From contig CAWBAT010000002.1 in assembly GCA_963786955.1 (NCBI GenBank), forward strand, positions 107,874 through 171,873: a stretch of 64,000 bases of DNA. The letters are read 5' to 3'. How positions within the stretch are numbered: the stretch's first letter is position 1; the number at the start of each line of letters is the position of its first letter. Source of the stretch: an uncultured Acidimicrobiia bacterium (GTDB lineage Bacteria > Acidobacteriota > Terriglobia > Versatilivoradales > Versatilivoraceae). The notes under the pieces were generated by a model. That model was not told the DNA's origin. It saw only the letters and a program-made list of their open reading frames with translations, and made no database searches. Made by a program: the position numbers and the translations under genes. This document shows positions 33,697-58,089 of the stretch, in pieces.

Positions 33697-34788
33697 ATGC
33701 CGACAACCATGAATAGTGATATCAAAAACAAAGCCATGAGTGCCCGTCAAACCCTGGACGCCTGGACGCGCGAAGTCGTTCAATGGCATTTCGATCCGGA
33801 AACCGGCTGTCCATTCTGGCTGGAATATGCAAAAACCTTGGATTGGGATCCGCGGTGTGAGATTCAGTCCTACGACGATCTCTCACGCTTTGGTAATTTT
33901 CAAGATGAGTGGTTACGGGGAGGGCCCGTGCGTCGCTGGGTTCCCAGAGCCTATGCCAAAAGTCCGATCTCTATTTTCGAGACTGGAGGCAGCACGGGAG
34001 TTCCTAAGTCGAGAATCAATATCGAAGATTTTCGAATTGATTATGAAGCCTTTAGTGCCACTCTTCCGGATGATGCGTTTCCCCGTGGCGCCGACTGGCT
34101 CTCGATAGGTCCAACTGGCCCCCGGCGTCTCCGCTTGGCCGTGGAACACCTGGCACAATTTCGCGGCGGCATCTGCTTTATGGTTGATCTTGATCCGCGT
34201 TGGGTTATCAAATTGATCAAAATGGGCGAATTGAAATTGGCGGAACTCTACAAACAACACGTGATCGACCAGGCGTTGACGTTGTTGCGCGCACATCCCA
34301 ATATCCAGTGCCTGTTTACAACGCCAAAACTGCTGGAAGCCCTCTGTGAAAAAGTTTCCCTAAAGAAAATGGGGATCCGGGGGGTTTTCTGCGGGGGAAC
34401 GGAAATGACCCCGCAATTCTATCGTTTCGCCGTTGAAGAGCTACTGGAAGGCGCTTATTTCGCACCTACCTATGGAAATACTTTGATGGGATTAGCTGTG
34501 CATAAACCCCGGGCGAATGAGGACAATTATGCGGTCATCTATTATCCTCCGTCACCGCGGGCTATGATCGAAGTGGTCGACCCTAACCAGCCGGACCATG
34601 TTGTGGCATATGGTCAAACAGGACGAGTTCGCCTGACGACCCTGACTCGCGAATTTTTTATGCCGCGTTTCCTTGAACGCGATGAAGCCGAGCGGGAGCC
34701 GGTGTGTGCCCTTTATCCGTGGGATGGGGTTCGTAACGTGCGCCCATTTTCGAAGTACCAATCCACCGTCGTCGAGGGAGTGTATTAA
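33697..34788 (+). CDS. EhpF/GriC-like adenylating enzyme (truncated ANL/PaaK-like fold)
   Basis: WHFDPETGCPFW, P-loop ETGGSTGVPK, DLDPRWV, GGTEM, YGNTLMG, G..GRV..TTL..E.F.P..LERD. Confidence 0.75.
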   Translation: MPTTMNSDIKNKAMSARQTLDAWTREVVQWHFDPETGCPFWLEYAKTLDWDPRCEIQSYDDLSRFGNFQDEWLRGGPVRRWVPRAYAKSPISIFETGGSTGVPKSRINIEDFRIDYEAFSATLPDDAFPRGADWLSIGPTGPRRLRLAVEHLAQFRGGICFMVDLDPRWVIKLIKMGELKLAELYKQHVIDQALTLLRAHPNIQCLFTTPKLLEALCEKVSLKKMGIRGVFCGGTEMTPQFYRFAVEELLEGAYFAPTYGNTLMGLAVHKPRANEDNYAVIYYPPSPRAMIEVVDPNQPDHVVAYGQTGRVRLTTLTREFFMPRFLERDEAEREPVCALYPWDGVRNVRPFSKYQSTVVEGVY

Positions 34789-34824
34789 TGTAGACCCATG
34801 AATTGTTGTTTGCCAGTCATTCTT

Positions 34825-34962
34825 CACCCCCTTGTAGTCCCCCCTTTTCACACAAGGAAGGGGAACGTCATTTTTCAGAAGAGCATCTATGCCGCCTTGT
34901 GCTGCGCCACGACCGATGAGAACAATCGTCCCCCCTTTGACAAAGGGGGACTTCAGGGGGGT
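34825..34962. repeat. Family A CCCCCTT/AAGGGGG REP-like doublet
   Basis: ACCCCCTTGTAGTCCCCCCTT ... AAGGGGGACTTCAGGGGGGT inverted arms. Confidence 0.7.
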
Positions 34963-35104
34963 GGGTGCTGGATTTGTAATACTATTTATTGTGTTTGGAT
35001 GTGTTTCCTTTTCTATTGTGCCTTGATCCAGTCGTCGTGTCCGAAATGTCGTTCTGTCCGAAGGACCCTCAATTTTCGAAATCGTGCTTAACCGGAGATT
35101 TGTG

Positions 35105-36535
35105 ATGATCCATATCCCCCTGCTCAGACGAGGAATATGCTATCAGAGTCTTGACGTGGTGCGGCTTCCGCATTATCAAACTCGAGAACCCTTTGTCGAG
35201 CTCAGTCAAGCCAATATTGGATTGATTCGGCGTGATCTCCTGCATCAGATAGAGAGCCGGGCAGATCTGCAACAATTCTCAACCCAGGAACTTCTCGACA
35301 TATGTAAAAAAGCGGCCGACTTCTTTGCCAAGTCCACCTTGCCGCTAGGGGATGCCCGCCAGACACCTGAAGATTATATTCGCCAGGTTTCTGCAACGAC
35401 AGGTCTTCCTTTCGCTTTGGCCCGCAAAAACCTCAACAAGATTCAGGGAGTCATGTCTCAAATGGAGACGGTTCTGAATGGGATGACCCGCCACCTCGAT
35501 TTTGAGATTCTCGATCAGGGTTTCGGAAAGCTGAATGGCACGGCACTGAGTTATTATGCGAGAACAAACTCACTAGGAGTGGTTCTGCCCAGCAACTCTC
35601 CGGGAGTGCACTCCCTTTGGGTACCCGCAGTACCCCTTAAAATCCCTCTCGTTCTCAAGCCCGGGAGTGGCGAGCCCTGGACGCCTTATCGGCTTGCACA
35701 AGCAATGATTCAGGCAGGGTGCCCACCGAGCGCATTCAGTTATTTTCCCACCGATCATGCGGGTGGCGCCGAAATTCTGCGACAGTGCGGTCGGGGAATG
35801 GTTTTTGGAGATACCGCCTCTACCAGCATTTGGAACAATGATCCGCGAGTCGAAGTTCATGGGCCGGGCTACAGTAAAATCGTCATTGGAGAAGATTGCA
35901 TCGAAGAGTGGGAGCGATTTATAGATGTCATTGTGGCTTCGATCGTTGAAAATGGCGGCCGGTCCTGCGTGAACGCCTCAGGGGTGTGGGTGCCCAAGTA
36001 TGCCGCGAAGATTGCCGAAGCCCTCGCCTTCCGTCTGGCCCAAATTGCTCCACGGAGTTCCGAAGACGAAGCGGCCGAACTCGCCCCATTTGCAGATCCT
36101 AGAGTGGCGGAGCGAATGGCGCTTCAAATTGAGCAAGGTCTTGCCCAACCGGGAGCCCGCGACGTTACCGCTACTTATCGCTCCGGAGGCAGTCTCGTGA
36201 ATTGGCAAGGTTGCTCCTATCTTGTTCCGACCATTGTTTTGTGCGACTCTCCGGAGCATCCACTCGCAAATCGGGAGTATTTGTTCCCATTCGCGAGCAT
36301 CATCGAGATAGGCCAAAACCAGATTCCGGAAGCACTCGGGAAAAGCTTGGTCGTGACGGCTATTACACGCGACTCTAGGCTTATCGAGCGTTTGATCGCC
36401 TCGCCATTGGTCGACCGTCTGAACCTGGGGCCCATTCCGACCTATCAAATCGCCTGGGACCAGCCTCACGAAGGGAACCTCTTTGAACATCTATACTCCC
36501 GGCGAGCTTTCCAGAGCCCAATTGAAGCGGCCTGA
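35105..36535 (+). CDS. EhpG/GriD-like acyl reductase (aldehyde dehydrogenase superfamily)
   Basis: VLPSNSPGVH, LKPG..EPWTP, HGPGYSK, catalytic Cys in NGGRSCVNAS, EYLFPF, QPHEGNL. Confidence 0.8.
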   Translation: MIHIPLLRRGICYQSLDVVRLPHYQTREPFVELSQANIGLIRRDLLHQIESRADLQQFSTQELLDICKKAADFFAKSTLPLGDARQTPEDYIRQVSATTGLPFALARKNLNKIQGVMSQMETVLNGMTRHLDFEILDQGFGKLNGTALSYYARTNSLGVVLPSNSPGVHSLWVPAVPLKIPLVLKPGSGEPWTPYRLAQAMIQAGCPPSAFSYFPTDHAGGAEILRQCGRGMVFGDTASTSIWNNDPRVEVHGPGYSKIVIGEDCIEEWERFIDVIVASIVENGGRSCVNASGVWVPKYAAKIAEALAFRLAQIAPRSSEDEAAELAPFADPRVAERMALQIEQGLAQPGARDVTATYRSGGSLVNWQGCSYLVPTIVLCDSPEHPLANREYLFPFASIIEIGQNQIPEALGKSLVVTAITRDSRLIERLIASPLVDRLNLGPIPTYQIAWDQPHEGNLFEHLYSRRAFQSPIEAA

Positions 36536-36576: not shown

Positions 36577-37116
36577 ATGATGAGCCAAACACTTGTTCTA
36601 TCTTTTGTTCTCCGCACGATCTTCCTTGATGACATGAGCACTTCTTTCAAATCGATTCTTTTCACCCTGATCGCTTTAACTTTTATCATTGCGGGAATTC
36701 CGTTTCTTTTGCATCACTTTGGATTGCTGCAATGGACCATGGCTCCATGGACCACGGCAATGCCGGGTGCATTGACATCACTTCTTGGACTTTTGATCTA
36801 CATCCTCTGTGCGAGAGACTTCGCCCGCTTTGGCCGAGGGACACCTGCCGTTTGGGACCCACCCAAAACATTTGTTTCGCATGGTCTTTACCGTCTCGTT
36901 CGTAACCCTATGTATCTGGGAATTGTCTTGATCGTCATCGGAGAAGCGTGTTTCTTTCATTCTCGCCCTCTGTTAATCATCTCTCTGTCCATCTGGCTGC
37001 TGTTTCACGGTTTTGTCCTTTTTTATGAGGAGCCCACGCTCACTAAGAAATTTGGAGATTCGTATCGCCAGTATTGCTTGCAAGTTTCCCGCTGGCTTCC
37101 CCGTTGGCCTGGATGA
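36577..37116 (+). CDS. ICMT/PEMT family membrane methyltransferase
   Basis: GRGTPAVWDPP, GLYRLVRNPMYLG, YEEPTL..FG.SY..Y..V.RWLP; start may be 36634. Confidence 0.85.
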   Translation: MMSQTLVLSFVLRTIFLDDMSTSFKSILFTLIALTFIIAGIPFLLHHFGLLQWTMAPWTTAMPGALTSLLGLLIYILCARDFARFGRGTPAVWDPPKTFVSHGLYRLVRNPMYLGIVLIVIGEACFFHSRPLLIISLSIWLLFHGFVLFYEEPTLTKKFGDSYRQYCLQVSRWLPRWPG

Positions 37117-37125
37117 GTCTATTTT

Positions 37126-38737: not shown

Positions 38738-39403
38738 TTGCTTGAAATTGACAACCTGAGCAAAAGCTATCCGTCTCCGCAAGGAATCCTGCCGGTGCTT
38801 TCGGATATTTCTCTGACGTTACGTTCCGGAGACGCTGTTTCCATTATGGGTCCCTCAGGCAGTGGCAAGAGTACGCTACTCTATATTCTTGGTGCCCTGG
38901 AACCGCCAACTCAAGGCACCGTGCAGTTGGACGGAGTGAACCCATTCCAACTTCGCGAACTCGAGCTTTCTCGCTTTCGGAACCAAAAAATCGGGTTTAT
39001 TTTTCAAGATCATTGTCTCTTGCCGCAATGCAACGTGCTCGAAAACGTTCTTATTCCATCGCTGGTTGCCCCGGGCAGATTTGATTATCGGCAACGCGCC
39101 CAGGACCTATTGGAGAAGGTCGGTTTGAGTGACCGCCTGGAACATCTTCCTGCTGAACTTTCCGGGGGCGAAAAACAACGCGTTGCTTTGGCCCGTGCTC
39201 TCATCTGCAAGCCTTCCCTACTCCTTTGTGATGAGCCGACAGGAAATCTGGACCGCCTGTCAGCGGAAAGTGTGACAACGTTGTTACTCGATATCCATCG
39301 TCGTGAGAGCGACATTCTCATCTTCGTGACTCACAACCCGGACTTGGCTGCCAGGTTTCCGCTCCGCTTTACCATGCACGACCGGCAACTGGAAGGGATG
39401 TAG
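38738..39403 (+). CDS. ABC transporter ATP-binding protein (LolD/MacB-like)
   Basis: [32 protein letters not shown]. Confidence 0.93.
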
Positions 39404-43074: not shown

Positions 43075-44331
43075 TTGATTCAACGTGCCGACTGGCGTCA
43101 GGCTTTCTTTCTCTTGATCATCGGTACCGTCTTATTAGGAGCTACTTTTCCGGATAAGAACGAAGTGCCTGGAGAGTGGCCTCAATGGCGAGGTCCAAAT
43201 CGCGACGGGGTTTCCCGGGAATCCGGCTTGCTGAAGGAATGGCCCTCGGCTGGCCCTCCCCTGGTCTGGAAAACCCAAGGACTCGGAAATGGCTATTCCA
43301 CAGTGGCTGTGTCAAAAGGACGCATATACACCATGGGAGTTCGAGGAGACCAAGAGTTCATCATGTCAATCGATGTGAAGGATGGAAAACTCCTTTGGGA
43401 GCGGTCTCATGGATCACGTTTTGTAAATGATCAAGGGGACGGGCCGAGAAGCACACCCACGGTCGATGGAAATTTCCTCTATGCCCTGGGTGGGAATGGC
43501 GACCTCTCTTGCCTGGAATTGAAAGACGGGAAAACCGTATGGACGATGAACGTTCTCCAAAAGTTTGAAGGCACCAACACCCATTGGGGGATCAGTGAGT
43601 CTCCTTTAATTGTGGGCGACCGACTCCTAGTGACTCCCGGAGGCAAGAACGCGGCGATTGTGGCTCTCGATAAGCAAGACGGCTCTGTCATCTGGAAAAG
43701 CCAAAGCGACCGCCCAGGATATTCCTCTGGCGTCTACACGGAACTCGGCGGGATTCCAGAGGCCATATTCTTTACCGGGTCGCGCGGTCTTGGAGTTGAC
43801 GTCCGGAATGGAGACTTGCTGTGGGAATATTCCCAGGCGTCCAATCGAACCGCGAATATCGCAACTCCTATTGTCAGTGGAAACTATGTATTTCTTTCCT
43901 CCGACTATGGTACTGGTTGTGCACTTCTGGCGCTTGTTCCCAGTGAGGGAAAAATCAAGGCTCGAGAAATTTACTTTAACCAGGAAATGAAAAACCATCA
44001 TTCCAGTTCAGTTCTCGTAGACGGAACCTTGTACGGTTTTTCCAGTGCCATCTTAACGGCCATGCGTTTCAATGACGGTCATGTATTCTGGAAGGATCGA
44101 AGTGTCGGCAAAGGGTCCTTGACCTACGCGGATGGGCATTTGTACTGCTTCAGTGAGAAGGGGGTGGTCGGGCTGGTAGAAGCCAACCCCGAAGCCTATA
44201 AAGAAAAAGGGAGGTTCTCAATCTCCCAGGAAACCCTACCGACCTGGAGCCATCCGGTAGTCGCTGGAGGACGGCTATACTTGCGGGATCAGGGCACTTT
44301 ATATAGTTATGACATAAAAGAGAAGCAGTGA
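43075..44331 (+). CDS. PQQ-binding-like beta-propeller repeat protein
   Basis: AGGAGG RBS; signal peptide; EWPQWRGPNRDG; GPRSTPTVDG; TWSHPVV..GRLYLRDQ. Confidence 0.88.
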   Translation: MIQRADWRQAFFLLIIGTVLLGATFPDKNEVPGEWPQWRGPNRDGVSRESGLLKEWPSAGPPLVWKTQGLGNGYSTVAVSKGRIYTMGVRGDQEFIMSIDVKDGKLLWERSHGSRFVNDQGDGPRSTPTVDGNFLYALGGNGDLSCLELKDGKTVWTMNVLQKFEGTNTHWGISESPLIVGDRLLVTPGGKNAAIVALDKQDGSVIWKSQSDRPGYSSGVYTELGGIPEAIFFTGSRGLGVDVRNGDLLWEYSQASNRTANIATPIVSGNYVFLSSDYGTGCALLALVPSEGKIKAREIYFNQEMKNHHSSSVLVDGTLYGFSSAILTAMRFNDGHVFWKDRSVGKGSLTYADGHLYCFSEKGVVGLVEANPEAYKEKGRFSISQETLPTWSHPVVAGGRLYLRDQGTLYSYDIKEKQ

Positions 44332-44359
44332 TTCTGTGTCAAGCAAACGAATGGGGTTT

Positions 44360-44455
44360 GTGGGGCGGTCTCGTTGATACCTCCGCAGAAATTGTCCCCC
44401 TTCGTCAAGGGGGACTCGCGGGGGGTTGGTAGGGTGGTCTCGCTGAGACCCCCCT
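44360..44455. repeat. Family A palindrome flanked by GTAG/GTGG-type REP units
   Basis: GTCCCCCTTCGTCAAGGGGGAC between GTGGGGCGGTCTCGTTGATACC and GTAGGGTGGTCTCGCTGAGACC. Confidence 0.55.
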
Positions 44456-44525
44456 TACTGATATCTGACTCTTTCAATGCGCTCGATGAGCGTGCTCGGC
44501 CTTTTAGAGGAGAATGAGAGATTTG

Positions 44526-45791
44526 ATGAAAAAGATCGTTTTATTTCTGGCAGTCCTGCTGACAACCATCCCGGACCTCTCTTTTTGCGAAAATTGGCCA
44601 CAGTGGCGCGGACCCAGCCTGAACGGGGTGAGTGTCGAAGACAATTTACCGGTCCGTTGGAGCAATGAGAAGAACATCCTTTGGAAGCTGGCTTTGCCTG
44701 AACGAAGTGGTGCCACGCCTATCATCTGGGGAGAGACTATCTTTTTGAATATTGCCGAAGCGGACGTGCTTTCCTTGTGGGCAGTGAACCGAAAAGACGG
44801 CAGTGTGCTTTGGAAACGTCCGCTGGGCAGCGGAAATATCCGGATGAATAAGCAAAACATGTCTTCCCCCTCACCCGTGACAGATGGCCTGAATGTTTAT
44901 GTCATGACGGGTACCGGTATTTTAAAAGGTTTTGATTTTGCAGGAAAAGAATTATGGGTAAGAGATATTCAGCAGGATTATGGGAAGTTTGGCTTAAATT
45001 GGGGCTATGCCTCCTCGCCCCTGCTTTACGGTGATTCTCTCTATGTTCAGGTTTTACATGGAATGAAAACTGATGCCCCATCGTATTTGCTGCGAATACA
45101 CAAGAAAACGGGAAGGTCCGTTTGGAAAGTGGAACGCCCGACACCAGCGATTACGGAATCACCCGATTCATACACGACACCCACGCTGGTCCGCCATTCG
45201 GCTGAAGTCGAGATTGTTGTGACGGGTGGTGATTGCATGACCGGCCACGACCCAGAGACAGGAAAAGAGCTTTGGCGGGCGAACGGTTTCAATCCTGACA
45301 ATGACCCCTTTCACCGGATTATTGCTTCTCCGGTAGTTGCGGACGAAATTATTTACGCCCCGACTAAGGTTCGTCCTTTAATGGCGTTTCGTTCCGGTGG
45401 CCGCGGCGATATCAGCCAATCTCATCTTCTGTGGTCATTTCAAAATGGGCCGGACGTTCCATCTCCGGTGAGCGACGGCAAGTACTTCTTCAGTGTCAAT
45501 GACAAGGGAATAGCATGGTGTCTCGATGCCAAGACCGGGAAAGAAATCTGGGGGCCACAACGGCTAACGCCCGCCATTTATAGTGCTTCTCCAGTTTTGG
45601 CGAATGGTAAACTTTATGTCATCAACGAAGAAGGGTTAACCACCGTACTTAAGGCCGGGCCCACTTTTGAAATTGTAGCCGAGAATCCACTCAACGATTA
45701 CACACTCAGTTCCCCAGCCATTTCTAACGGCCACATTTATATTCGGACCGCCAAATATCTTTACTGTATCGGGAAACCCGGAAATCGCTAA
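44526..45791 (+). CDS. PQQ-binding-like beta-propeller repeat protein
   Basis: MKKIV signal; NWPQWRGP; SPSPVTDG; YASSPLLY; DVPSPV; SSPAISNG.IYIRT. Confidence 0.88.
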   Translation: MKKIVLFLAVLLTTIPDLSFCENWPQWRGPSLNGVSVEDNLPVRWSNEKNILWKLALPERSGATPIIWGETIFLNIAEADVLSLWAVNRKDGSVLWKRPLGSGNIRMNKQNMSSPSPVTDGLNVYVMTGTGILKGFDFAGKELWVRDIQQDYGKFGLNWGYASSPLLYGDSLYVQVLHGMKTDAPSYLLRIHKKTGRSVWKVERPTPAITESPDSYTTPTLVRHSAEVEIVVTGGDCMTGHDPETGKELWRANGFNPDNDPFHRIIASPVVADEIIYAPTKVRPLMAFRSGGRGDISQSHLLWSFQNGPDVPSPVSDGKYFFSVNDKGIAWCLDAKTGKEIWGPQRLTPAIYSASPVLANGKLYVINEEGLTTVLKAGPTFEIVAENPLNDYTLSSPAISNGHIYIRTAKYLYCIGKPGNR

Positions 45792-46132: not shown

Positions 46133-46582
46133 TTACGAAGAAGGTTTGAAATAAAGCACCATTCCGGCGCCCACCGATACTAAGAGAAATCCCAAGTACA
46201 GCAAGGGATTCGGCGAAGTCTTGGGAGGATGGAGCCACATGGAATACAATACATTCACCAGCGGTGCTCCGCCGAAGACCAGCGGCATCACATAAGTGGG
46301 CGTCCCACCAAATTTAAACGCCCAGATAATGCAGATTGCCCCTAGCGCACCCAGCCCTCCGGCAACAGTAGCCCCAACAGTTCCACTCCAATTGAAGTTT
46401 TTCAATCCACCCTGAGAGGAGAGCGTCACAGCAGGTACCAAAACCCCCATGAGGAAATAAGCGAATCCCACACAAAGTAAGGCCTTCATGGGATTGCCGA
46501 GCTGAACTTGACCCCGATGGAGTGAGGGCCCATACAGCCCCCATGAAACAACTGCACCTAAGACAAAAATGAGCCATGTCAT
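46133..46582 (-). CDS. Small DMT/EamA-like membrane protein (about 5 TM)
   Basis: AAGGAG RBS; WGLYGP.LH, GALGAICII.A...GG.P.YVMPLVFGGAP. Confidence 0.75.
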   Translation of the reverse strand: MTWLIFVLGAVVSWGLYGPSLHRGQVQLGNPMKALLCVGFAYFLMGVLVPAVTLSSQGGLKNFNWSGTVGATVAGGLGALGAICIIWAFKFGGTPTYVMPLVFGGAPLVNVLYSMWLHPPKTSPNPLLYLGFLLVSVGAGMVLYFKPSS

Positions 46583-46598
46583 ACTCGTCCGTCTCCTT

Positions 46599-48065
46599 TC
46601 ACTGCTTTCCGAAACAATAAAGAGTCTTCTTGGTCCGAATGTAAAGCTGCCCATCGCCAAAAGCTGGAGTGGAATAGCATTCCTCGTTCAGGTCATTGGT
46701 GGCCAGGACCTCCCAGTTTCTTCCAGGTTGGATTACGCTGACTTTTCCTTCCTGGCTGATCGTAAATATCTTGTCATCGGCGGCAACCGGCGACGAGAAA
46801 TAATCTCCGGGAGCATCTTGCAACCTCGCTTGCTTAACCACTGTCCCAGTGTTTGCGTCTAATGCAGTCAGGATGCCTCCTTCTTTCATCAGGTAGAGGA
46901 TATTTTTGTAGAATAACGGAGAAGGCACATTGGGCAAGGACTTACGGTAACGCCATACAAAACTGCGTTCTGTTTCATCCCCATGACTACCTAACCGAAA
47001 CGCCGAGACGGAGTTAACTGCAGAACGGCGCAAACGGTAGAAACGCCAGTCCCGTTCACTCACAAAACCATCCCGGTCAAGATCTAACGCCTTCCAATCT
47101 TTTTTGAGCTGCTCGTTTGATATTTCTTCCGCAGACAGCTTCCCATCGTGATTGGTATCCTCTTTCTTCAGAATTTCATCAAATGGAGGAATGTTTTCTT
47201 GTTGCCCTTCATCGGACCCGCCTGCCCAGCCATTGATGAAGATCATGTCATCATTCATCACAGGCGTTCCCTTCATTTGCCAGCTCAAACCACCCAGCCA
47301 CCAGAGTTCTTTTCCCGAATCTGCCGAGTAGGCAGTCAATTGGAATGAGCCTGAGATCAGAATCTGGTGCGGTCCGCTTGCAGGTTTATAGACAATCGGT
47401 GTCGCGAATCCCCGGCTGAATTCCGGACGCTCGACCCGCCAGCATATTTTTCCGGTATCTTTGTTAATTGCGAGAAGAAAGGATCCACTCTCCTGATCGC
47501 AGTTCATGACCACTTTGTCATCAACAAGAATGGGCGAAGCACCCAAGCCCATAGGGTTGTTGAAAGGTCCCAAAGGAAGATGCCAAAGCTCTCTCCCTTC
47601 CGTGCTATATGCAATCAAGCCGAAATCGGTAAAGAAAGCATAAACATTCTTTCCATCGGTCACGGGACTTGAAGATGCAGGAGTATTGGCTTTGTGCAGT
47701 TCTTCGCTGCGATTTTTGGGTACTTCGCGTTGCCAAAGGATCTTCCCGTTTCTTCTCTCTATACCCAGGACATAGAGTTTCTCATCTTGAAAAGCCGTTA
47801 CAAAAATGGCGTCGCTCGTAAGAACGGGGGAAGAATGTCCTGGCGGCAATGTTGTTTTCCAGAGGAGATTTTTAGTTGGACCGAATTCCGTGGGCAGCCC
47901 ATTACACTTCTCCGCCAGTCCCGAGCTATTAGGGCCCCGGAATTGCGCCCAACCCGGAGGATTTGCATCACCCTGGAGAATCCCCACCAAACCGAGATAG
48001 AGAATCCATGGTGACACGAACAAAAACCAACAATCCCTATCCCGCTTCAAGATTCGGAGTTTCAT
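46599..48065 (-). CDS. PQQ-like beta-propeller protein with inserted EF-hand pair
   Basis: WAQFRGP, GHSSPV; EF loops DTNHDGKLSAEE and DLDRDGFVSERD; VPSPL. Confidence 0.85.
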   Translation of the reverse strand: MKLRILKRDRDCWFLFVSPWILYLGLVGILQGDANPPGWAQFRGPNSSGLAEKCNGLPTEFGPTKNLLWKTTLPPGHSSPVLTSDAIFVTAFQDEKLYVLGIERRNGKILWQREVPKNRSEELHKANTPASSSPVTDGKNVYAFFTDFGLIAYSTEGRELWHLPLGPFNNPMGLGASPILVDDKVVMNCDQESGSFLLAINKDTGKICWRVERPEFSRGFATPIVYKPASGPHQILISGSFQLTAYSADSGKELWWLGGLSWQMKGTPVMNDDMIFINGWAGGSDEGQQENIPPFDEILKKEDTNHDGKLSAEEISNEQLKKDWKALDLDRDGFVSERDWRFYRLRRSAVNSVSAFRLGSHGDETERSFVWRYRKSLPNVPSPLFYKNILYLMKEGGILTALDANTGTVVKQARLQDAPGDYFSSPVAADDKIFTISQEGKVSVIQPGRNWEVLATNDLNEECYSTPAFGDGQLYIRTKKTLYCFGKQ

Positions 48066-48317
48066 TGAGAATTCATAAAGATAGGAATGTAAGCCATTGA
48101 AAGTTCTCGCTTACTTCTCGATCTCGCCCACATTGCATCAATTGTGAAGACGTGGAAGAGAAATTCGGTGCTGATAAGCCGTCTCGCGTTATAGAATTCG
48201 CCCCCGACCATTCATATTCCAGCCCGATAGCCCACGATTGTAGCAATCGGTCGGGACTATTGCAAACCATGCCTTGACTATGGGATAGTGACCCTTCATT
48301 TCGAAGAAAGGAATGCC

Positions 48318-49661
48318 ATGAGAAACTCCGGTCAGACACGTGAGAAACTCCGCTTGACGCCCGTGCAGTGGGTAATTTGTCTCATTGCCATTTTGGGATT
48401 TGCCTTTGACACCTATGAATTACTGATGCTCCCGTTGATCATCCGTCCCGCCCTGATGGAACTGGTTCAAGCCAAGCCGGGGACACCACTCTTCAACGAA
48501 TGGATCGGAAAACTCTTCTATATTCCCGCGCTCGCTGGCGGGATTTTCGGATTGCTTGGCGGTTATCTGACAGATTTGCTGGGAAGGCGGCGTGTCCTGG
48601 TCTGGAGCATTTTGCTTTACGCGTTTTCAGCCTGTGCCGCGGGTTATGCGACCTCTATTCAAATGCTCCTCTTTTTTCGCTGCACAACATTTATCGGCGT
48701 ATGCGTCGAATTTGTGGCTGCGGTCGCCTGGCTGGCGGAATCATTTCCAGACCCGAAGCAGCGTGAAACAGTTCTGGGGTACACACAGGCCTTTTCATCG
48801 ATCGGGGGTGTCATGGTGACAGGCGCCTATTACCTCGCTGTTTCCTATGCTCCGTTGCTCCCCACGATCTACGGAGCCCACGAGCCTTGGCGCTACACGC
48901 TCATCTCAGGGCTGATTCCAGCGATTCCGCTTCTCCTGGTACGTCCATTTCTTCCGGAATCACCCGCCTGGCAACACCAGAAATCCTTGGGGACATTAAA
49001 GAGGCCCAGCCTTTCGGAACTCTTTGCACCGGTATTCCGAAAGACAACATTCGTGACGACGCTCCTGTTCGCCTGTAGTTACGGCGCCGCCTTTGGGGCC
49101 ATCCAGCACACGCCCAGAATGGTTCCGGGACTCGAGGAGGTTCGTTCGCTGCCGAAGCCGGTGCAGGAGCAAAAGGTGAGTCGTGTTCAGCTCTTTCAGG
49201 AGATGGGGGGACTTGCAGGGCGTTTTCTTCTAGCCTTTCTGGCGATTCGAATTGTCAGCCGAGGCAGACTCCTTCGAATCTTCCAGTTGCCCGGCTTGGT
49301 AGTCTTGCCGTTTGTTTTTTTCTATGCCGCGACACATAGTCTGGCGTTATTACAATGGGGAATTTTTGTAGCGGGACTGTTGACTGTCGGACAATTTAGC
49401 TTTTGGGGAAACTATCTGCCACGAGTCTATCCGACACACTTACGAGGAACGGGTGAAAGTTTTGCTGCCAACGTGGGCGGCCGCATGATTGGAACTTCTG
49501 CCGCCCTGCTCACCACTACTTTGGCGAGCTTAATGCCTGGAGGGAATCCATCCACCCAATTGGCCTATGCTGCGGCCATTGTAGCGTCCGGTACCTACCT
49601 CTTAGGGTTTGCGGCCAGTTTCTGGCTTCCTGAACCCGCGCGGGCAGAATTGCCTGAGTGA
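48318..49661 (+). CDS. MFS transporter
   Basis: GFAFDTYE, GYLTDLLGRRRVL motif A, E.FP...RE, YPTHLRGTG; about 12 TM. Confidence 0.9.
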   Translation: MRNSGQTREKLRLTPVQWVICLIAILGFAFDTYELLMLPLIIRPALMELVQAKPGTPLFNEWIGKLFYIPALAGGIFGLLGGYLTDLLGRRRVLVWSILLYAFSACAAGYATSIQMLLFFRCTTFIGVCVEFVAAVAWLAESFPDPKQRETVLGYTQAFSSIGGVMVTGAYYLAVSYAPLLPTIYGAHEPWRYTLISGLIPAIPLLLVRPFLPESPAWQHQKSLGTLKRPSLSELFAPVFRKTTFVTTLLFACSYGAAFGAIQHTPRMVPGLEEVRSLPKPVQEQKVSRVQLFQEMGGLAGRFLLAFLAIRIVSRGRLLRIFQLPGLVVLPFVFFYAATHSLALLQWGIFVAGLLTVGQFSFWGNYLPRVYPTHLRGTGESFAANVGGRMIGTSAALLTTTLASLMPGGNPSTQLAYAAAIVASGTYLLGFAASFWLPEPARAELPE

Positions 49662-49697: not shown

Positions 49698-50870
49698 TCA
49701 ACCAAAGCAATATAACCGCCCGTCTTGAGAGCCGATGACAATCCTTCCCTCCGCGATTGCCGGGGAGGCGGAAAGGGGTGCTCCTGCCTCAAACTCCCAG
49801 AGTTTCTTTCCCGTCGTTAAACCCAACACGTAAAAATGCCCGTCGCTGGATCCGATAAACACGCGCTGATCGGCAATGGCAGGGGAACTGTCCACCCGCG
49901 CGTTGGTTGGAAATGTCCAGAGTGATTTTCCGGTTTGTGCGTCGAGACAGTAGACCAGCTTGTCCCGCCCGCCCAAAACAACCTTCCCTTCCATGATGCC
50001 TGCTGACGAGTAGAACGGAAACTGGCGTTCCGGATTCTCATAGCGCCAAACAATTTTATGCGATTGCCTGTCAACGCTCAGGACTTCGTTGTTAAAGGTT
50101 CCGTAATACGCTCGGTTCTCCTCCAAAGCAGGAGAAGCTCCCGTATAGCCTCCGGAGGAAACGCTGAACGCTTCTTTCCCATCGCTGATTCGGATCGCTC
50201 TGAAAATTTCGTCGCACCCGGAAATATAGACCAGGCCTGCGGAGATACTGGGAGTGCAGTGGACGGGACCGCTAATCCGAAACTTCCAAAGCAAGGTGCC
50301 AGTGCGTGCTGCCAAACAATAAAGGGTTTCATCATAAGATCCAATAAATACTCGATCTCCGCTGACGACCGGAGAGGACTTGATCTCAGATCCGGTCGTG
50401 AACGTCCAGGCTCTTTTCCCGTCTATCGATCGCACGGCGTGAAATGTCCCCTGCAAATCACCTACATAAACAATTCCATTCGCAACACAAGGAGACGATT
50501 CGCCAATTCCCTGGTCTGTCTTATACTTCCAGCGTACGGAGCCATTTCTGAGATCCAGGGCGAGCAACTCCGAAGCCTGTGTCCCCACAAATGCTGTACC
50601 CTCAACGATCGCGGCTGAGGACTCAATTGCTTCTCCCGCTTCATAGTTCCAGAGGGTTTTCAAAGCCGTTGGCACACGGCAACGGGCCACTCCCGTTAAT
50701 TCCAGATTCCCGCGAAACTGCGGCCAGCTGGTATCCAATTTGTCTTCTTGTGGAGTCCTGGCAAAAGGAGCCAAGAGCATGGAAATTGGCGCCAACAAGA
50801 AGGATCGTCGTGGAGTCTGTGAACAGGAGGGGTTCTTCTTACGGTTCATAGCCGAAGGTCTGTGCGTCAT
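49698..50870 (-). CDS. Regular 8-bladed PQQ/BamB-like beta-propeller protein (possible Tat signal)
   Basis: PRRSFLL; WPQFRGN; eight regular SSP(A/V)..G.V(Y/F).G..DG.LY.L...TG...W repeats. Confidence 0.85.
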   Translation of the reverse strand: MTHRPSAMNRKKNPSCSQTPRRSFLLAPISMLLAPFARTPQEDKLDTSWPQFRGNLELTGVARCRVPTALKTLWNYEAGEAIESSAAIVEGTAFVGTQASELLALDLRNGSVRWKYKTDQGIGESSPCVANGIVYVGDLQGTFHAVRSIDGKRAWTFTTGSEIKSSPVVSGDRVFIGSYDETLYCLAARTGTLLWKFRISGPVHCTPSISAGLVYISGCDEIFRAIRISDGKEAFSVSSGGYTGASPALEENRAYYGTFNNEVLSVDRQSHKIVWRYENPERQFPFYSSAGIMEGKVVLGGRDKLVYCLDAQTGKSLWTFPTNARVDSSPAIADQRVFIGSSDGHFYVLGLTTGKKLWEFEAGAPLSASPAIAEGRIVIGSQDGRLYCFG

Positions 50871-50926: not shown

Positions 50927-51035
50927 TTAATACAAACGTATTATGTATTGTTGCGAATCACCTACGGCGCATAAGAAACACGCACCGTGGCTACCCAAGC
51001 GGGATTGCGACATAAATTTAATGCGTTTGTATTAA
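50927..51035. mobile_element. TIR-bounded MITE-like element containing a REP of the local RAYT family
   Basis: TTAATACAAACGTATTA versus TAATGCGTTTGTATTAA; internal CACCGTGGCTACCC identical to RAYT-flanking REPs. Confidence 0.65.
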
Positions 51036-52177
51036 TAGGCTGCCTGATAGATTTCTAGCGCTCCGGCAGCATTGAATAGGCGAGGATTGAATTGCCCTGT
51101 CCATTGCTGTGTCGCAAGCTCTGCCAACGATTGCAGTTCGTCTTGAGCGATACCTAATTCTCTAAGCCTGAGCGGGAATCCTGCAATCTTCGCAAGGCTC
51201 TCCAAATGGGAAGCCAAGCCTTCTGTCTCATTGCCGCCGTTTGAATGAAGAGTAGATGCTCTCAGCAGTTCACGATAATGGTCGCCAACCACGCTTCCAT
51301 TCCAGCGAACCACGGAAGGGAGCAACAACGCAACAGCGATACCATGGGTCGTACCGAAACGGGCGGTCAGGGGATTTGCGCACGCATGCGTTGCGCCCAA
51401 CATGGAATTTTCGATGGCCACGCCCGCAAAGTGAGCTCCCAGTTGCATGGCAGCCCTGGCTTCGAGATCGCTGCCATCCTTCAAAACGATCTCGAAGTTT
51501 CTTTCCAGGAGATTCCACGCTTCCAATGTATAGAGACGAGATATGGGGGTTCGTTTGGTGGTGACGAAGGTCTCAACGGCATGGGCAATCGCGTCGTAGC
51601 CAGCCGCGGCGGTAACGTGTGGGGGCTGTGTGACTGTCAAGAGAGGGTCCAAAATGACAATTCGAAACGCAGCCTGCGGGTCGCCACAGGCCATCTTCAC
51701 ATGCGACTCGGCATCAGAGATCAATGCATAACTTTGAACCTCGCTCCCCGTCCCGGCAGTTGTGGGGATTCCAATCATAGGCAACATCGGTTGTCGAGCT
51801 TTCCCATATCCCCAATAGTCCTGGATTCTCCCGCCATTACTGAGTACAAAATTGATTCCTTTGGCGCAGTCCATGGAGCTGCCACCACCAAGACCAATCA
51901 AGGAATCGATTCCGAATGGTAACGCCCATTGGTGGCCTTGTTCCACGACGACACTGTCGGGATTCTCCCCAAAATCGTGAAACGAAATGACCTCGATTCC
52001 CGTTTGTTTGAGAATCCGTTCCGCCTGGTCGACAAAGCCCTGTGCCCGAATCCCGGGGTCAGCAACCAGCAGCGTTCGGCTAAAACCTAATTTTCTAGCC
52101 AGATCGCCGAGCCGATCAAAAGTGTTTTTCCCGAAGAGCGTGCGTGTTCGCGGTTGGTAGTCGAAAGAGGAGATCAT
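51032..52177 (-). CDS. Iron-containing alcohol dehydrogenase
   Basis: GGGSSMDCAK, IPTTAGTGSE, DAIAHAVE, HACANPL..HG metal ligands. Confidence 0.92.
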   Translation of the reverse strand: MISSFDYQPRTRTLFGKNTFDRLGDLARKLGFSRTLLVADPGIRAQGFVDQAERILKQTGIEVISFHDFGENPDSVVVEQGHQWALPFGIDSLIGLGGGSSMDCAKGINFVLSNGGRIQDYWGYGKARQPMLPMIGIPTTAGTGSEVQSYALISDAESHVKMACGDPQAAFRIVILDPLLTVTQPPHVTAAAGYDAIAHAVETFVTTKRTPISRLYTLEAWNLLERNFEIVLKDGSDLEARAAMQLGAHFAGVAIENSMLGATHACANPLTARFGTTHGIAVALLLPSVVRWNGSVVGDHYRELLRASTLHSNGGNETEGLASHLESLAKIAGFPLRLRELGIAQDELQSLAELATQQWTGQFNPRLFNAAGALEIYQAAY

Positions 52178-52413: not shown

Positions 52414-53985
52414 TCACTTCTTAATCTCGGCAAGCGCATACAACTGGTTTCGGTTCATGATGAATAGGGCTCCATTAGCCGGCACCGCAGACGAGTATAT
52501 GGAACTACCCATGTTCATTTCAGCAATCAATTTCTTCTCTTTTCCTGCCTGAAGCACAACGACATCCCCATCTTCATCGCCCAGGTAGATCTTTCCATCA
52601 ACGAGCAGGGGTGAGCCCCACATCGCTGCGAGCATGTCGTGAACCCAATAAGGCTTTCCTGTTTTCAGGTCGAGACAATGCAGAAATCCGCTAAAGTCAG
52701 CATAATAAATCAACCCGTCTTGGATGGCGCCCGTTGAAATCGAGCGCCGTATCTTGTCGTAGTGCCATACCCGTCCGCTTTCCGTGATATCTCCACGCTT
52801 AGTCGGGTCAATGCAATAAAGATGGCCGATGCCTTCTCCGTGCTCAGGATCTTGTCCATTGGCAATATAAACATGATCCTCATAAATTACGGGTGTAGCA
52901 ATCAGTTCATTCCGGGTCTTCGGCCACACCGAGTCCTTCGGGTTCGCATCAAAGTCCCAGAGTTTTTTCCCGGTGAGCGCCTCGTATCCGCGGATCCAAC
53001 CATCGCCTTGCGCACTGACAACTTGAACTACATCCCCGATTTTGCCAACAGCCGGAGAAGACCACTGTCCATGCAAAATCCGATCACCAACCGAATTGTC
53101 CTCCCATACGAGTTTTCCGGTTGTCTTACTGACCGCAATGATGCTGGGAGCCTTGGGAGAGGGGATATTGACATGGCTCTCATCCTGACCGTTTGAGGTG
53201 CTCACGTAAATCAAATCGCCGTACGATACGGGGGAAGAGTTTGACATATTATGAGGTAGGGAGCCCACTTCTTCCATCATGTCGAATTTCCAAAGGATGT
53301 CAGCGTCCGTAGGGCCGGTGAATTTCTCTTCCTTGTAAGGGCCATTGTTTTCGCCATCCCGAAATCCCTCTGTATCCAGACAGATCAACTCACAGCGATT
53401 GCTCACATAATAGAGCCGTTTCCCTTCCACCAGAGGAGAGGAACAGACACCTTGATAAGGCCAATCATTCACTCGACCCGCCAACAGTTTCTCATGAGTC
53501 GACTGCCAGAGGAATTCACCATCGGATTCGCGAAATGCCATGAGTACTCCGCGGTCCCCCAGCAGTTTGGGATTCTTAAAGCTTTCATTGTTGGTCCCGA
53601 CAAAAACCTTCCCTCCCGCAACTACTGGATTACCGTAACTTTGAGAACCCAGGGTAGCCACCCACCTCACGTTTTTCTTGCTTGCAATATCCCAGCCGGT
53701 CGGAAGACCTTTCATAGAGGAAACCATGTTTCTGTCGGGAGTCCCTCCCCACATCGGCCAGTCGCCGGTTCCCGGATCAGAGGCAGACACGCGAAGCTTT
53801 GGGGACAGCCCAATCAAGGCGACTAAGATCACCATGACGCCGACCCAGAACCCTCCAACTCTCAAAATGGTTACAGCCAATAAATGTCGGTCTGGAACGC
53901 TCTGGCCTTGGGGCCTATTCCGCTGCGTCGAATAATGCCCACTCCCCGATTGATTTGCGTTTGAATGATACGGATATGATCTCAT
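52414..53985 (-). CDS. PQQ-binding-like beta-propeller repeat protein
   Basis: TM/signal; DWPMWGGTPDRNM; LGSQSYGNPVV; GVCSSPLV; HGQWSSP; GQDPEHGEG. Confidence 0.85.
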   Translation of the reverse strand: MRSYPYHSNANQSGSGHYSTQRNRPQGQSVPDRHLLAVTILRVGGFWVGVMVILVALIGLSPKLRVSASDPGTGDWPMWGGTPDRNMVSSMKGLPTGWDIASKKNVRWVATLGSQSYGNPVVAGGKVFVGTNNESFKNPKLLGDRGVLMAFRESDGEFLWQSTHEKLLAGRVNDWPYQGVCSSPLVEGKRLYYVSNRCELICLDTEGFRDGENNGPYKEEKFTGPTDADILWKFDMMEEVGSLPHNMSNSSPVSYGDLIYVSTSNGQDESHVNIPSPKAPSIIAVSKTTGKLVWEDNSVGDRILHGQWSSPAVGKIGDVVQVVSAQGDGWIRGYEALTGKKLWDFDANPKDSVWPKTRNELIATPVIYEDHVYIANGQDPEHGEGIGHLYCIDPTKRGDITESGRVWHYDKIRRSISTGAIQDGLIYYADFSGFLHCLDLKTGKPYWVHDMLAAMWGSPLLVDGKIYLGDEDGDVVVLQAGKEKKLIAEMNMGSSIYSSAVPANGALFIMNRNQLYALAEIKK

Positions 53986-56215: not shown

Positions 56216-56502
56216 AGATCCTCTTTAATGACCATTTTCACGTATAAATTATTTTCCACGACGCTGTCGTTGCGACTGTCTTGCTGGCAAATTAGAAATA
56301 AAGCCGAATTCCCTTTAATCGCTGCCCCGTCAAAGTATAATCTGAAATGGCTGACCTGGGGAGATGAAACCTTATTTTTCTCAAAAACACTCCCTCCGAT
56401 TGCGGTTGTGCTTTCCCGTGATTGAGATATGCAGTCGGCTTTTACGGCCAATCCGGATCCCAATCACATGAGGCACTCTAGAACTTGAAACTGGAATAGA
56501 CT

Positions 56503-58089
56503 ATGCAAATTCGTCTTCTGCTTGAAAAATGGATTGTGATTTCTTTGGCTTCTGTCGTTTTCCCCCCTTTGGGATTCTTGCTGGTCTGGATTCGCCGCCA
56601 CACGCGAATAACGCGGAAGATTTTCAGTTCGCTTTTGATTTTCGTCATCGGGTTTTTCTATCTTCGATTTTTCGTTGGTTTGCGAATTGAACTGGATGGA
56701 ACCGGCATTTCCCCGTTGATTTCCTTCTATAAGCGGGAGCGTCACTATGCCCGCCTGGAAGAAAGCCGGGCTCATCAGAAACAGACGCCGCCTTTGGCTG
56801 CCCCCTCGACGGTGCAAGCACAACCTCCTCCGGTGGCATCTCAACCTTTCATGCCAGCAAACTCGGCGGCACCAGTTTCGCTTGCAGTCATTCCCGCTTC
56901 CGAGAAAAAGTTAGAATCACAAAAAAACACGCAAAACTACTGGACGGATTTTCGCGGTCCTCGAAGAGACGGCCGCTATGACGAGATGCCTGTTTTGAAC
57001 GAGTGGCCTTCTCCTGGCCCGGCCTTACTTTGGCGGCAACCCATTGGAGGAGGATATGCCAGCTTCGTAGTTGCCGAGGGCAAGGCATTCACGATTGAAC
57101 AACGTCGGGCGCAAGAAGTGGCGACGGCCTATGAGCTGAAAACCGGAAGAGAACTGTGGGCACAGGCATGGGATGGAGAATTTCGGGAATCGATGGGAGG
57201 GGACGGACCCCGAGCCACACCTACGTGGGAGGGAGGACATCTCTATGCTTTGGGGGCTCAGGGGGAATTGCGCTGCCTCGAGGCTAGCACGGGGAAGCTC
57301 ATTTGGAGAAAGAACATTCTTGAGGACAACCAGGCCCAGAATCTCACCTGGGGAATGGCGGCCTCCCCCTTAATTGTTGACAACAAGGTCATCGTTCTTC
57401 CGGGAGGCCCTTCCGGGAGATCGGTGGTTGCTTATAACAAATTGACTGGAGACCCTGTCTGGAAGGTGCTGGATGATAAGCAAGCCTACACCTCTCCCAT
57501 GCTCGTCACTCTCAATGGCCGCCGCCAGCTGTTGGTCGTGAGTGCTCAACGGGCGATGGGGCTAGATCCCGAAGCCGGAACGCTACTTTGGGAATTTCCG
57601 TGGACCACTGAATACGGCATTAATAGCGCCCAACCTCTGATTGTCGGTGAAGACACAATTTTCATTTCAGCAGGATATGGGCATGGCTCCGTTCTTTTGG
57701 AAGTAAAGTCCACAAGTCCTGGATTTGCGGCTCGACCCGTCTGGCAAAACACTTCCATGAAAAATAAGTTTGGCAGCTCAGTTCTCTACCAAGGTCATAT
57801 CTATGGAATGGATGAGGCCATCCTGTCCTGCATTGACGCTACTTCAGGAGAGCGAAAATGGAAAGGCGGACGCTATGGGTATGGACAGCTGCTGCTAGCC
57901 GGGGAATCCCTGATCATTCTTTCCGAATACGGACAACTGGCCCTGGTGAAGGCTAGCCCCGACAAATACTTGGAGGTTTCAGGCTTTCCTGCCCTGGAAG
58001 GAAAAACCTGGAATAACCCCGCCATCGCGGAAGGATATTTGCTGGTTCGCAACACAACCGAAATGGCCTGCTTCCGGATTGCCCCATAG
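56503..58089 (+). CDS. Membrane-anchored PQQ-like beta-propeller protein
   Basis: Two N-terminal TMs, Pro/Ala linker, WTDFRGPRRDG, GPRATP, KGGRYGYGQ, KTWNNPA. Confidence 0.85.
   Translation: MQIRLLLEKWIVISLASVVFPPLGFLLVWIRRHTRITRKIFSSLLIFVIGFFYLRFFVGLRIELDGTGISPLISFYKRERHYARLEESRAHQKQTPPLAAPSTVQAQPPPVASQPFMPANSAAPVSLAVIPASEKKLESQKNTQNYWTDFRGPRRDGRYDEMPVLNEWPSPGPALLWRQPIGGGYASFVVAEGKAFTIEQRRAQEVATAYELKTGRELWAQAWDGEFRESMGGDGPRATPTWEGGHLYALGAQGELRCLEASTGKLIWRKNILEDNQAQNLTWGMAASPLIVDNKVIVLPGGPSGRSVVAYNKLTGDPVWKVLDDKQAYTSPMLVTLNGRRQLLVVSAQRAMGLDPEAGTLLWEFPWTTEYGINSAQPLIVGEDTIFISAGYGHGSVLLEVKSTSPGFAARPVWQNTSMKNKFGSSVLYQGHIYGMDEAILSCIDATSGERKWKGGRYGYGQLLLAGESLIILSEYGQLALVKASPDKYLEVSGFPALEGKTWNNPAIAEGYLLVRNTTEMACFRIAP

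Follow-up and report, generated by a model that had tools for sequence, protein, structure and literature searches.

The locus described here raises the question of whether neighbouring genes for a two-protein carboxylate reductase, a glycosyltransferase, an ABC transporter and several secreted β-propellers work as one system. They lie at positions 33697–58089 (~24 kb) of a 64,000-nt stretch of the acidobacterial contig CAWBAT010000002.1, referred to as the window, and an earlier note on this DNA had read nearly every one of them as part of a single functional set. Window proteins were taken from a listing of open reading frames (ORFs) and scanned with Pfam and NCBIfam; 44 ORFs were scanned, very short ones being left out. 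Every gene class named in that note was recovered in place, and no Phz, Lux or Pqq biosynthesis family occurred among the scanned ORFs, in agreement with its statement that phz, lux and pqq genes are lacking, short ORFs such as pqqA falling outside the scan. The analysis established what the genes encode, which folds they are assigned to, how the operon is built and that its linkage is conserved. The cluster is real, linked and previously undescribed, and was seen mainly in Acidobacteriota among the loci examined. A full-text literature search, with subscription journals not covered, returned no description of this combination, of its acidobacterial breadth or of its tie to propellers; the component families are known and their combination appears to be new.

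The first gene of the cluster encodes an EhpF-like adenylating protein (EhpF), and this was used to search for related loci. A word-indexed search was saturated, with each of the 8000 candidates that were scored coming through; the top 120 had 78–99% identity, and the named sources among these 120 were metagenome-assembled genomes of Acidobacteriota. A library of representatives at 50% identity gave 1551 clusters at E ≤ 1e-3 and 304 at E ≤ 1e-30, with relatives forming one tight acidobacterial cluster accompanied by full-length relatives at 33–44% identity. For the genome scan a 10-sequence EhpF alignment served as the query, a 31-sequence alignment (A1) being too diverse for locus scanning; at least 604 stretches were matched and at least 588 confirmed, the EhpF-bearing genomes being counted at species level. 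The best 80 of these confirmed stretches were compared, with window proteins run against them by tblastn, so that all counts given below describe close relatives of common ancestry (EhpF identity 74–85% in 79 loci). The remaining locus, L061, binned as Haloferula, is clearly more distant at 58%. Labels were acidobacterial for 75 of the 80 loci (26 Pyrinomonadaceae, 13 Blastocatellia, 9 Bryobacterales/Solibacteraceae, 4 Terriglobia, 3 Vicinamibacteria and 20 unspecified Acidobacteriota) and other for five. Four of these five are at 74–81% identity and may be binning errors; L020 and L075 show the acidobacterial core, and L074 and L076 only EhpF and the aldehyde dehydrogenase-fold reductase gene.

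Downstream of EhpF, a co-directional core was found consisting of an aldehyde dehydrogenase-fold reductase subunit (ALDH), a GT4 glycosyltransferase (GT4), a LolD-like ABC ATPase (ABC) and a double-FtsX permease (FtsX2). Where at least 1.6 kb of downstream DNA was available (75 loci), ALDH was present on the same strand in 66 and anywhere in 69; the corresponding values were 65 and 67 for GT4 (at least 3.0 kb, 71 loci), 49 and 51 for ABC (at least 3.9 kb, 66 loci) and 45 and 47 for FtsX2 (at least 5.0 kb, 62 loci). For the 52 loci whose downstream DNA reached at least 9.9 kb, termed full-flank loci, same-strand and overall counts were 47 and 49 for ALDH, 47 and 49 for GT4, 39 and 41 for ABC, and 38 and 40 for FtsX2, with GT4 standing after ALDH in 47. 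In some loci, e.g. L002, neighbouring core genes overlap or are separated by tens of bases. When 1029 ORFs from the 80 loci were clustered without bias, the same families came out (EhpF in 70 loci, ALDH in 61, GT4 in 61, FtsX2 in 40, ABC in 38), followed by propellers (31), an outer-membrane barrel protein (OMP, 13) and an EamA-like protein (9), with nothing else in more than 13. Because the genes flanking the cluster in the window (DUF6079, PBP1, DeoC and a REP-associated tyrosine transposase, RAYT) recur in none of the 80 loci, the conserved unit starts at EhpF. The earlier note had left it to such a comparison whether the genes are co-conserved or the reductase pair sits instead beside phz or other known scaffold genes; in this clade the former holds. 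Its idea of one set is supported, as a set of linked genes, for EhpF-ALDH-GT4-ABC-FtsX2, conserved across acidobacterial classes, and fails for the methyltransferase and the MFS transporter, which fall outside the set; the iron-type alcohol dehydrogenase (Fe-ADH) lies near EhpF in only 2 of the 52 full-flank loci. The features of the window are collected in Table 1.

Table 1. Features of the cluster and its downstream edge, with positions in the window.
Feature	Position	Strand	Evidence and remarks
EhpF/GriC-type adenylating subunit, 363 aa, ANL N-terminal domain only	33697–34788	+	PDB EhpF 3hgu_A, E=1.9e-43
EhpG/GriD-type ALDH-fold reductase subunit, 483 aa	35084–36535	+	Aldedh 1.9e-14
PEMT/ICMT-family membrane methyltransferase	36577–37116	+	PEMT 2.1e-12; window-specific insertion
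GT4 glycosyltransferase, 429 aa	37126–38415	+	Glycos_transf_1 6.8e-25
LolD/YbbA-like ABC ATPase	38738–39403	+	LolD 234.9 bits (cut-off 307.75), YbbA 193.6 bits
Type VII ABC permease, duplicated FtsX, 1190 aa	39432–43004	+	two FtsX stretches (Pfam), ~10 predicted transmembrane segments
Prop1, secreted propeller	43075–44331	+	PQQ_2 1.4e-30
Prop2, secreted propeller, predicted 8-bladed BamB-like fold	44514–45791	+	PQQ_2 2.1e-26
Mem175, small EamA/DMT-like membrane protein	46133–46660	-	probably 149 aa, start 46582
Prop3, propeller with EF-hand insert	46599–48065	-	PQQ_2 1e-26 + EF-hand
MFS transporter, weakly aromatic-acid/H+ symporter-like	48288–49661	+	MFS_1 5.1e-25; membership doubtful
Prop4, ACSF4-type propeller	49698–50870	-	Beta-prop_ACSF4 276 bits (cut-off 133)
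Fe-ADH, iron-type alcohol dehydrogenase	51032–52177	-	Fe-ADH 1.9e-44, ADH_Fe_C 4.6e-37
Prop5, membrane-anchored propeller	52414–53985	-	PQQ_2 3.6e-24
Prop6, propeller, 738 aa	53999–56215	-	PQQ_2 1.7e-28
Prop7, propeller with two N-terminal transmembrane segments	56503–58089	+	PQQ_2 5.6e-29; membership least certain
OMP, TonB-dependent-type outer-membrane barrel	59029–62259	-	OMP_b-brl_4 802 bits; possible member, beyond the range of the earlier note

Assignment of the reductase pair to the EhpF/EhpG (GriC/GriD) type, as the earlier note had it, was borne out by both subunits. The EhpF-like protein aligns end to end with 369-aa EhpF (query 21–368 against residues 20–369), and it has the phosphate-binding loop of adenylate-forming enzymes as ETGGSTGVPK, in which G97, G98, G101 and P103 are invariant (alignment A2). 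The window ALDH matches the EhpG-position protein of an ehp-type phenazine cluster (L082:10026–11396) at 27% identity over 424 aa (E=8e-39) versus a best E of 4.2e-8 to ordinary solved ALDHs in the PDB, and its Cys295 is invariant in 62 of 62 aligned sequences. Neither the LuxE nor the LuxC Pfam family matched either protein at E ≤ 0.001, and a LuxCE-type reductase was dropped for want of Pfam support. A tblastn search of plasmids with the EhpF-like protein gave 29 records, none of which reached 60% identity; 19 were from Streptomyces, 4 from Pantoea and the rest from other sources, and they are annotated as "arylcarboxylate reductase," "AMP-binding protein" or "phenazine biosynthesis protein." On an Escherichia coli plasmid carrying an ehp-type phenazine cluster, an EhpF-like gene of 1062 nt is followed by an ALDH-family gene of 1371 nt; genes of those sizes are labelled ehpF and ehpG in Proteus in the excerpted text of PMC11278526. 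For the GriC/GriD pair, an excerpt of PMC10179220, citing Suzuki et al. 2007, states that GriC makes an acyl-AMP that GriD reduces to the aldehyde. Two fusions of distant EhpF relatives, P0202 (824 aa) with a class-III aminotransferase and P0242 (725 aa) with a Zn-dependent alcohol dehydrogenase, join EhpF to partners that both use aldehydes, and were counted in favour of a reductase pair.

EhpF and EhpG belong to the tailoring of the phenazine D-alanylgriseoluteic acid, and GriC and GriD to grixazone formation. Like these, the window pair consists of an ANL protein of ~360 aa lacking the C-terminal domain and, next in order, an ALDH-fold protein with its catalytic cysteine. It is, however, only 32–38% identical on the EhpF side and 27% on the ALDH side, lies in a window without phz, gri or other scaffold genes, and has GT4, a type VII ABC system and propellers linked to it. 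Among distant relatives at 32–38% identity to the EhpF-like protein, the pair sits in phenazine, polyketide synthase or aromatic clusters (three plasmid records), whereas EhpF of the present cluster forms one tight clade, ~80% identical across acidobacterial classes, and does not behave as a sporadic secondary-metabolite gene. Beyond bacteria, plasmid 2 of the haloarchaeon Halalkalicoccus jeotgali (L083, 6565–10623) carries an SSF symporter, an EhpF-like protein and an ALDH in a row, adjoined by an SDR-family gene; its ALDH matches that of the window at E=2e-33. A further distant EhpF relative, P0213 (687 aa), has an N-terminal part without assignment.

Several variants of the EhpF neighbourhood were seen. 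Three Blastocatellia loci (L005, 1161–6439; L006, 987–6186; L013, 10001–15878) hold two EhpF paralogues, at 77–79% and ~63–64%, in the order EhpF-GT4-EhpF'-ALDH' (ALDH' at 44–45%); a propeller and ABC-FtsX2 come after ALDH' in L005 and L006, and L013 ends there. Upstream of EhpF, nine loci, L047 (4805–9937) among them, have a Ser/Thr kinase of 1710 aa that contains long TPR arrays. Small ORFs of toxin-antitoxin type occur in or beside the operon, namely ParE in L005 (8034–8342) and DUF5615/PIN-like ORFs in L003 (14266–14655) and L061 (19457–19837).

For GT4, the C-terminal Glycos_transf_1 domain scored 88 bits against a Pfam cut-off of 26.4, which places it in that family, and no NCBIfam equivalog was reached. 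The permease that follows has predicted periplasmic domains at roughly residues 39–568 and 832–1071 by hydropathy. Residues 39–568, the 530-residue first domain, were modelled at pLDDT 82.9; the best folds were the periplasmic domains of LolE, LolC and MacB (E 1.7e-10 to 2e-7) over ~250 residues, the remainder being unmatched in the fold comparison. The FtsX stretches, this modelled MacB/LolC-like domain and the adjoining LolD-like ATPase together mark a type VII ABC system of the MacB/LolCDE/FtsEX/YbbAP class. A MacAB-TolC tripartite efflux pump was rejected: no MacA/HlyD-type adaptor was present among the 44 scanned ORFs or among the families recurring in the 80 loci, and a membrane-fusion adaptor adjacent to the permease is thus lacking. 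A LolCDE lipoprotein release system was likewise rejected, the LolD score given in Table 1 and a lolCE score of 28.7 (cut-off 362.45) both being below curated cut-offs.

Because no MacA-type adaptor gene was seen, the system resembles adaptor-less type VII systems. The excerpted text of PMC12646458 describes one of these, YbbAP-TesA, as a case in which a type VII transporter with duplicated FtsX is able to cooperate with a partner protein in the periplasm. As there, a YbbA/LolD-like ATPase and a single duplicated-FtsX permease are encoded next to a gene for a secreted protein. In contrast, the window permease is 1190 aa long, with its 530-residue first periplasmic domain only partly accounted for by LolE/LolC/MacB, its neighbour is a BamB-like propeller instead of a hydrolase, and the YbbP structure matched the domain model weakly (rank 39, E=2.2e-5). 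A second point of comparison is DevBCA with the heterocyst glycolipid system, where a fatty-alcohol glycoside is synthesized intracellularly and leaves through an FtsX-type ABC transporter. The logic of a reduced alcohol, a glycosyltransferase and a DevA/DevC-class exporter is similar, but the DevA and DevC scores (153 and 19 bits) are below their cut-offs (295.8 and 290.35), the window has neither a DevB adaptor nor polyketide synthase genes, and the reductase is of another family.

All seven window propellers matched PQQ_2 (E from 1e-24 to 1e-47) and all have a hydrophobic N-terminal stretch, although a hydropathy scan at a threshold of 1.6 called a segment in only five and missed Prop1 and Prop4. 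A WPxWRG-type motif was found within the first 90 residues of five, with Prop5 showing the variant WPMWGG and Prop7 having none in that region. Pairwise identity among the seven is only 21.5–36.6%, so they are old paralogues, and recent tandem duplication was rejected. A propeller is the next recognized gene within 500 bp after FtsX2 in 18 of 33 evaluable loci, and propeller density after the permease (2.89 per 10 kb; 30 in 103.9 kb) is ~11-fold the value upstream of EhpF (0.25 per 10 kb; 9 in 363.8 kb), a contrast with binomial p=6e-13 over 47 loci that overstates independence given common ancestry.

Relatives at ortholog level, defined as at least 45% identity with at least 80% coverage, were found beside EhpF in other genomes for six of the seven types (Prop1–6), with varying order and orientation. 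Those of Prop1 (58–63%) stand next to the operon in seven loci, and those of Prop2 (57–72%) occur in 12, mostly as the gene right after the permease. Prop3 relatives (46–55%) stand in divergent orientation to EhpF in L015 and L053, Prop4 relatives lie beside EhpF in L016 (49%) and L059 (65%), and relatives of Prop7 in other loci reach only 26–39%. The window has two more PQQ_2 propellers ~27 kb before the cluster start (3743–5041 and 5046–6647, both on the minus strand), and a second PEMT-family methyltransferase (16944–17540, minus strand) lies far from the cluster beside an SDR-family gene and a RhaT-like carrier; since extra copies sit elsewhere in the window, both are common families here.

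A model of Prop2 built with 11 orthologues (pLDDT 81.6, pTM 0.83) had BamB as its best fold (E=3.5e-18, TMq 0.68, TMt 0.81). The two superpose at only 17–18% identity, Prop2 is without a clear lipobox, and seven paralogues share one locus here; with TIGR03300 scores of 42–151 bits (cut-off 285.2) for the propellers, identity with BamB was rejected, only the fold being common. Membership of the PQQ-dependent quinoproteins was rejected too, all seven scoring 26–92 bits against 480 for TIGR03075, and quinoproteins appearing only further down the Prop2 fold list than BamB, with sorbose dehydrogenase at rank 40. Prop4 recalls ACSF4/AASDH, in which an adenylation enzyme is associated with a propeller of the same Pfam family; in the window, by contrast, the genes are separate, the propeller has an export signal and there is no carrier domain. 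Tat export of Prop4 was considered and rejected, the RR-like motif of the window copy not being kept in L016, L059 or L061.

These results bear on a first alternative, that two or three unrelated modules are neighbours merely by inherited gene order. EhpF-ALDH-GT4 would then be a cytoplasmic small-molecule module, and ABC-FtsX2 with the propellers a separate, FtsEX/LolCDE/YbbAP-like envelope machine for moving or regulating periplasmic proteins or lipids. The BamB-like scaffold fold of the Prop2 model would suit such a machine, and type VII systems normally act on periplasmic partners and not on cytoplasmic products, according to the excerpted text of PMC12646458. In several loci (e.g. L023, L031, L032, L053 and L066) EhpF-ALDH-GT4 has neither ABC nor FtsX2 within 10 kb, and the permease is far less conserved (39–47%) than EhpF. 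Against this separation stand the same-strand order from EhpF to the propeller, with overlapping or closely spaced genes, in some loci (e.g. L002), linkage across Blastocatellia, Bryobacteraceae, Terriglobia and Vicinamibacteria labels, and the interleaving of both groups in the single array of L016. We regard unrelated modules as unlikely.

The minus-strand half of the cluster (56215–49698: Prop6, Prop5, Fe-ADH, Prop4) was connected to EhpF through two loci. Fe-ADH itself has N- and C-terminal domains above Pfam cut-offs (151.7 and 128 bits), which places it in the family; its ErcA subfamily score was 273.2 against a cut-off of 550. In L016 (Terriglobia) the genes run on one strand as Prop6-Prop5-EhpF-(ALDH remnant)-FeADH-Prop4-HemN-like radical SAM enzyme-flavoprotein-SSF-GT4-thioesterase-ABC, and in L061 as TonB receptor-Prop6-Prop5-SSF-...-EhpF-ALDH-FeADH-Prop4-radical SAM-...-flavoprotein-...-GT4. 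Relatives are at 54% (L016) and 45% (L061) for Fe-ADH after EhpF-ALDH, 64% (directly before EhpF) and 46% for Prop5, and 47% (ortholog level) and 34% for Prop6, which heads both arrays. The window minus-strand array thus corresponds to the gene set of these arrays, with the EhpF-ALDH pair moved 15 kb away. Membership of Fe-ADH and Prop4–6, part of the set proposed earlier, is accordingly split: it is favoured by their joining with EhpF-ALDH in loci labelled as different phyla and disfavoured by the rarity of Fe-ADH near EhpF. The two arrays, two loci only, are the best evidence for the 24 kb as one functional set.

The HemN-like radical SAM enzyme and flavoprotein of these arrays are orthologous (L016, 13733–16567; L061, 15226–19072). 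They offer the only new lead for the reading of the earlier note, a non-PQQ cofactor or ligand made by the cluster and passed to the propellers, which it would render catalytic. After the halogenase CmlS, the best match at 191.8 bits (cut-off 900), the L016 and L061 flavoproteins matched QhpG (148.5 and 130.2 bits, cut-off 240) and then LodB/GoxB quinone-cofactor maturases, all below cut-off; in a variant restricted to L016 and L061, flavoprotein and radical SAM enzyme would build a protein-derived cofactor in the propeller. Conserved linkage of propellers with reductase genes is consistent with this reading, as are the many invariant residues kept by Prop2 orthologues, several of them in low-confidence stretches of the model. 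It is countered by the BamB-like model with quinoproteins lower in the list, by the quinoprotein scores of all seven propellers, by the better flavoprotein match to a halogenase, by the absence of radical SAM and flavoprotein genes from the ORFs scanned in the window, and by the lack of conservation of the Tat-like motif of Prop4. The cofactor idea is therefore left without support and we consider it very improbable. Only marginally less improbable is the possibility that a glycosylated aryl aldehyde or alcohol, made by the cytoplasmic reductase pair and GT4, is handed by the type VII ABC machine to the BamB-like propellers as a bound ligand or prosthetic group, in Acidobacteriota and at least one Haloferula-binned contig.

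The remaining window genes were less consistently shared. The methyltransferase was rejected as a pathway member, a weak relative occurring in 1 of 80 loci and at another position. No relative of the MFS transporter was found in the 80 loci by tblastn, and its TIGR00895 score was 109.8 bits against a cut-off of 418.55. Mem175 had no Pfam or NCBIfam match; its language-model look-alikes in the atlas are "putative EamA" clusters of Acidobacteriota (score 0.99), relatives at 55–72% identity occur in 13 loci, and an EamA-like gene lies within 700 bp after the permease in 5 of 33 evaluable loci. OMP relatives stand beside EhpF in L024, L030 and L064 (57–58% identity). A YbgC/4HBT thioesterase gene lies directly before EhpF in five loci, with another in L016, which fits release of a free acid.

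A second alternative takes the cluster as a route for salvaging or detoxifying carboxylic acids, probably phenolic, that come from outside. Such an acid would enter by MFS or SSF carriers, be reduced to aldehyde and alcohol, glycosylated and expelled, with propellers and TonB-type barrel acting on the outside supply. In its favour, scaffold-building genes are missing from the conserved operon, and known family members act on aromatic acids. Carriers of suitable kind are present as the symporter-like MFS of the window (below cut-off) and as SSF genes in the L016 and L061 arrays and directly before EhpF-ALDH on the Halalkalicoccus plasmid, and TonB-type barrels lie nearby in 16 of 52 full-flank loci. 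Yet the MFS has no counterpart among the 80 loci, SSF occurs in only two, and TonB-type barrels are generally abundant in Acidobacteriota. That EhpF stays ~80% identical from class to class speaks for a single fixed substrate and not for a broad detoxifier, and the thioesterase genes before EhpF point to an internal acyl-CoA source. Salvage is accordingly judged improbable, on a par with unrelated modules.

We tentatively favour, at somewhat less than even odds, a linked system of reductase pair, GT4, type VII ABC machine and secreted BamB-like propellers. The substrate, every chemical step, the direction of transport and the contact between permease and propellers are what we infer for it. 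The EhpF-type subunit would adenylate a carboxylic acid, the acyl group would pass to Cys295 of the ALDH-fold subunit as a thioester, and NAD(P)H would reduce it to the aldehyde, which Fe-ADH, where present, could turn into an alcohol. GT4 may then add a sugar to the aldehyde, the alcohol or a related molecule; ATPase and permease would handle the product on the outer side of the inner membrane, and the propellers may be its periplasmic partners or receivers. A complex prediction for permease residues 39–568 with Prop2 residues 26–425, both as alignments, gave a score of 0.00 (mark 0.32), which speaks neither for nor against such contact. Since scaffold-building genes are missing from the conserved operon, the acid would be either imported or a common metabolite of the cell. 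It would most likely be aromatic, because known family members act on aromatic acids, a halogenase/hydroxylase-like flavoprotein is present in L016 and L061, 4HBT-fold thioesterases adjoin EhpF, and the window MFS is weakly aromatic-acid symporter-like.

Several points weigh against this linked system. ABC is found nowhere in the locus in 11 of the 52 full-flank loci and FtsX2 nowhere in 12; EhpF is without any partner within 10 kb in L015, L018 and L022, and EhpF-GT4 is without an intervening ALDH in L005, L006, L013, L014, L052 and L078. The L016 ALDH is only a 102-aa C-terminal remnant, and the scarcity of Fe-ADH near EhpF counts here as well. Because type VII ABC systems work from the periplasmic side, a flippase would be required for a product made in the cytoplasm, and the EamA-like protein is only a guess for that role. 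The level of EhpF identity across classes is not accounted for, and the gene set also fits other readings, with substrate, product and activity being predictions from sequence.

Several other elements were noted in and around the cluster. A lone 1248-aa P-loop protein of BrxC/PglY type (29799–33545, plus strand; DUF6079 116.6 bits, PADLOC BrxC 86.8 bits) lies directly upstream; no second BREX-type gene was seen among its scanned neighbours, nor does it recur in the 80 loci. RAYT (58302–58811; NF047646, 107 bits) is flanked by inverted repeats of 33–40 nt (58135–58218 and 58829–58999), a diverged copy of which lies between Prop4 and Fe-ADH (50961–50998). A GC-rich 19-nt palindrome (34931–34949) sits inside the unusually long EhpF-ALDH gap (34788–35084), with a 3-mismatch relative (44396–44414) in the Prop1–Prop2 gap (44331–44514); three matches were found against 0.02 expected, and the palindromes are probably small repeat insertions that widen the gaps. 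Rfam identified a single tRNA gene (23249–23322, minus strand; 70.8 bits) as its sole match, with no riboswitch or other RNA leader, and promoter and terminator scans were at shuffle level (13 versus 11.1 and 22 versus 19.7).

Acidobacteriota are among the most abundant soil bacteria, and to our knowledge most of their conserved genes have no known role. The signature enzyme of this cluster is ~80% identical across classes and present in at least 588 species-level genomes. Its family is known only from the tailoring of antibiotics and pigments, and is here tied to an envelope ABC machine and a propeller family without assigned function. If the link is functional, it would provide a testable handle on the role of the expanded secreted propellers and on what is handled by type VII ABC systems other than the four of E. 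coli. Should the propellers prove to bind the product as a ligand or prosthetic group, this would give a function to the large "empty quinoprotein-like" families of propellers in soil bacteria, along with new cofactor or ligand chemistry.

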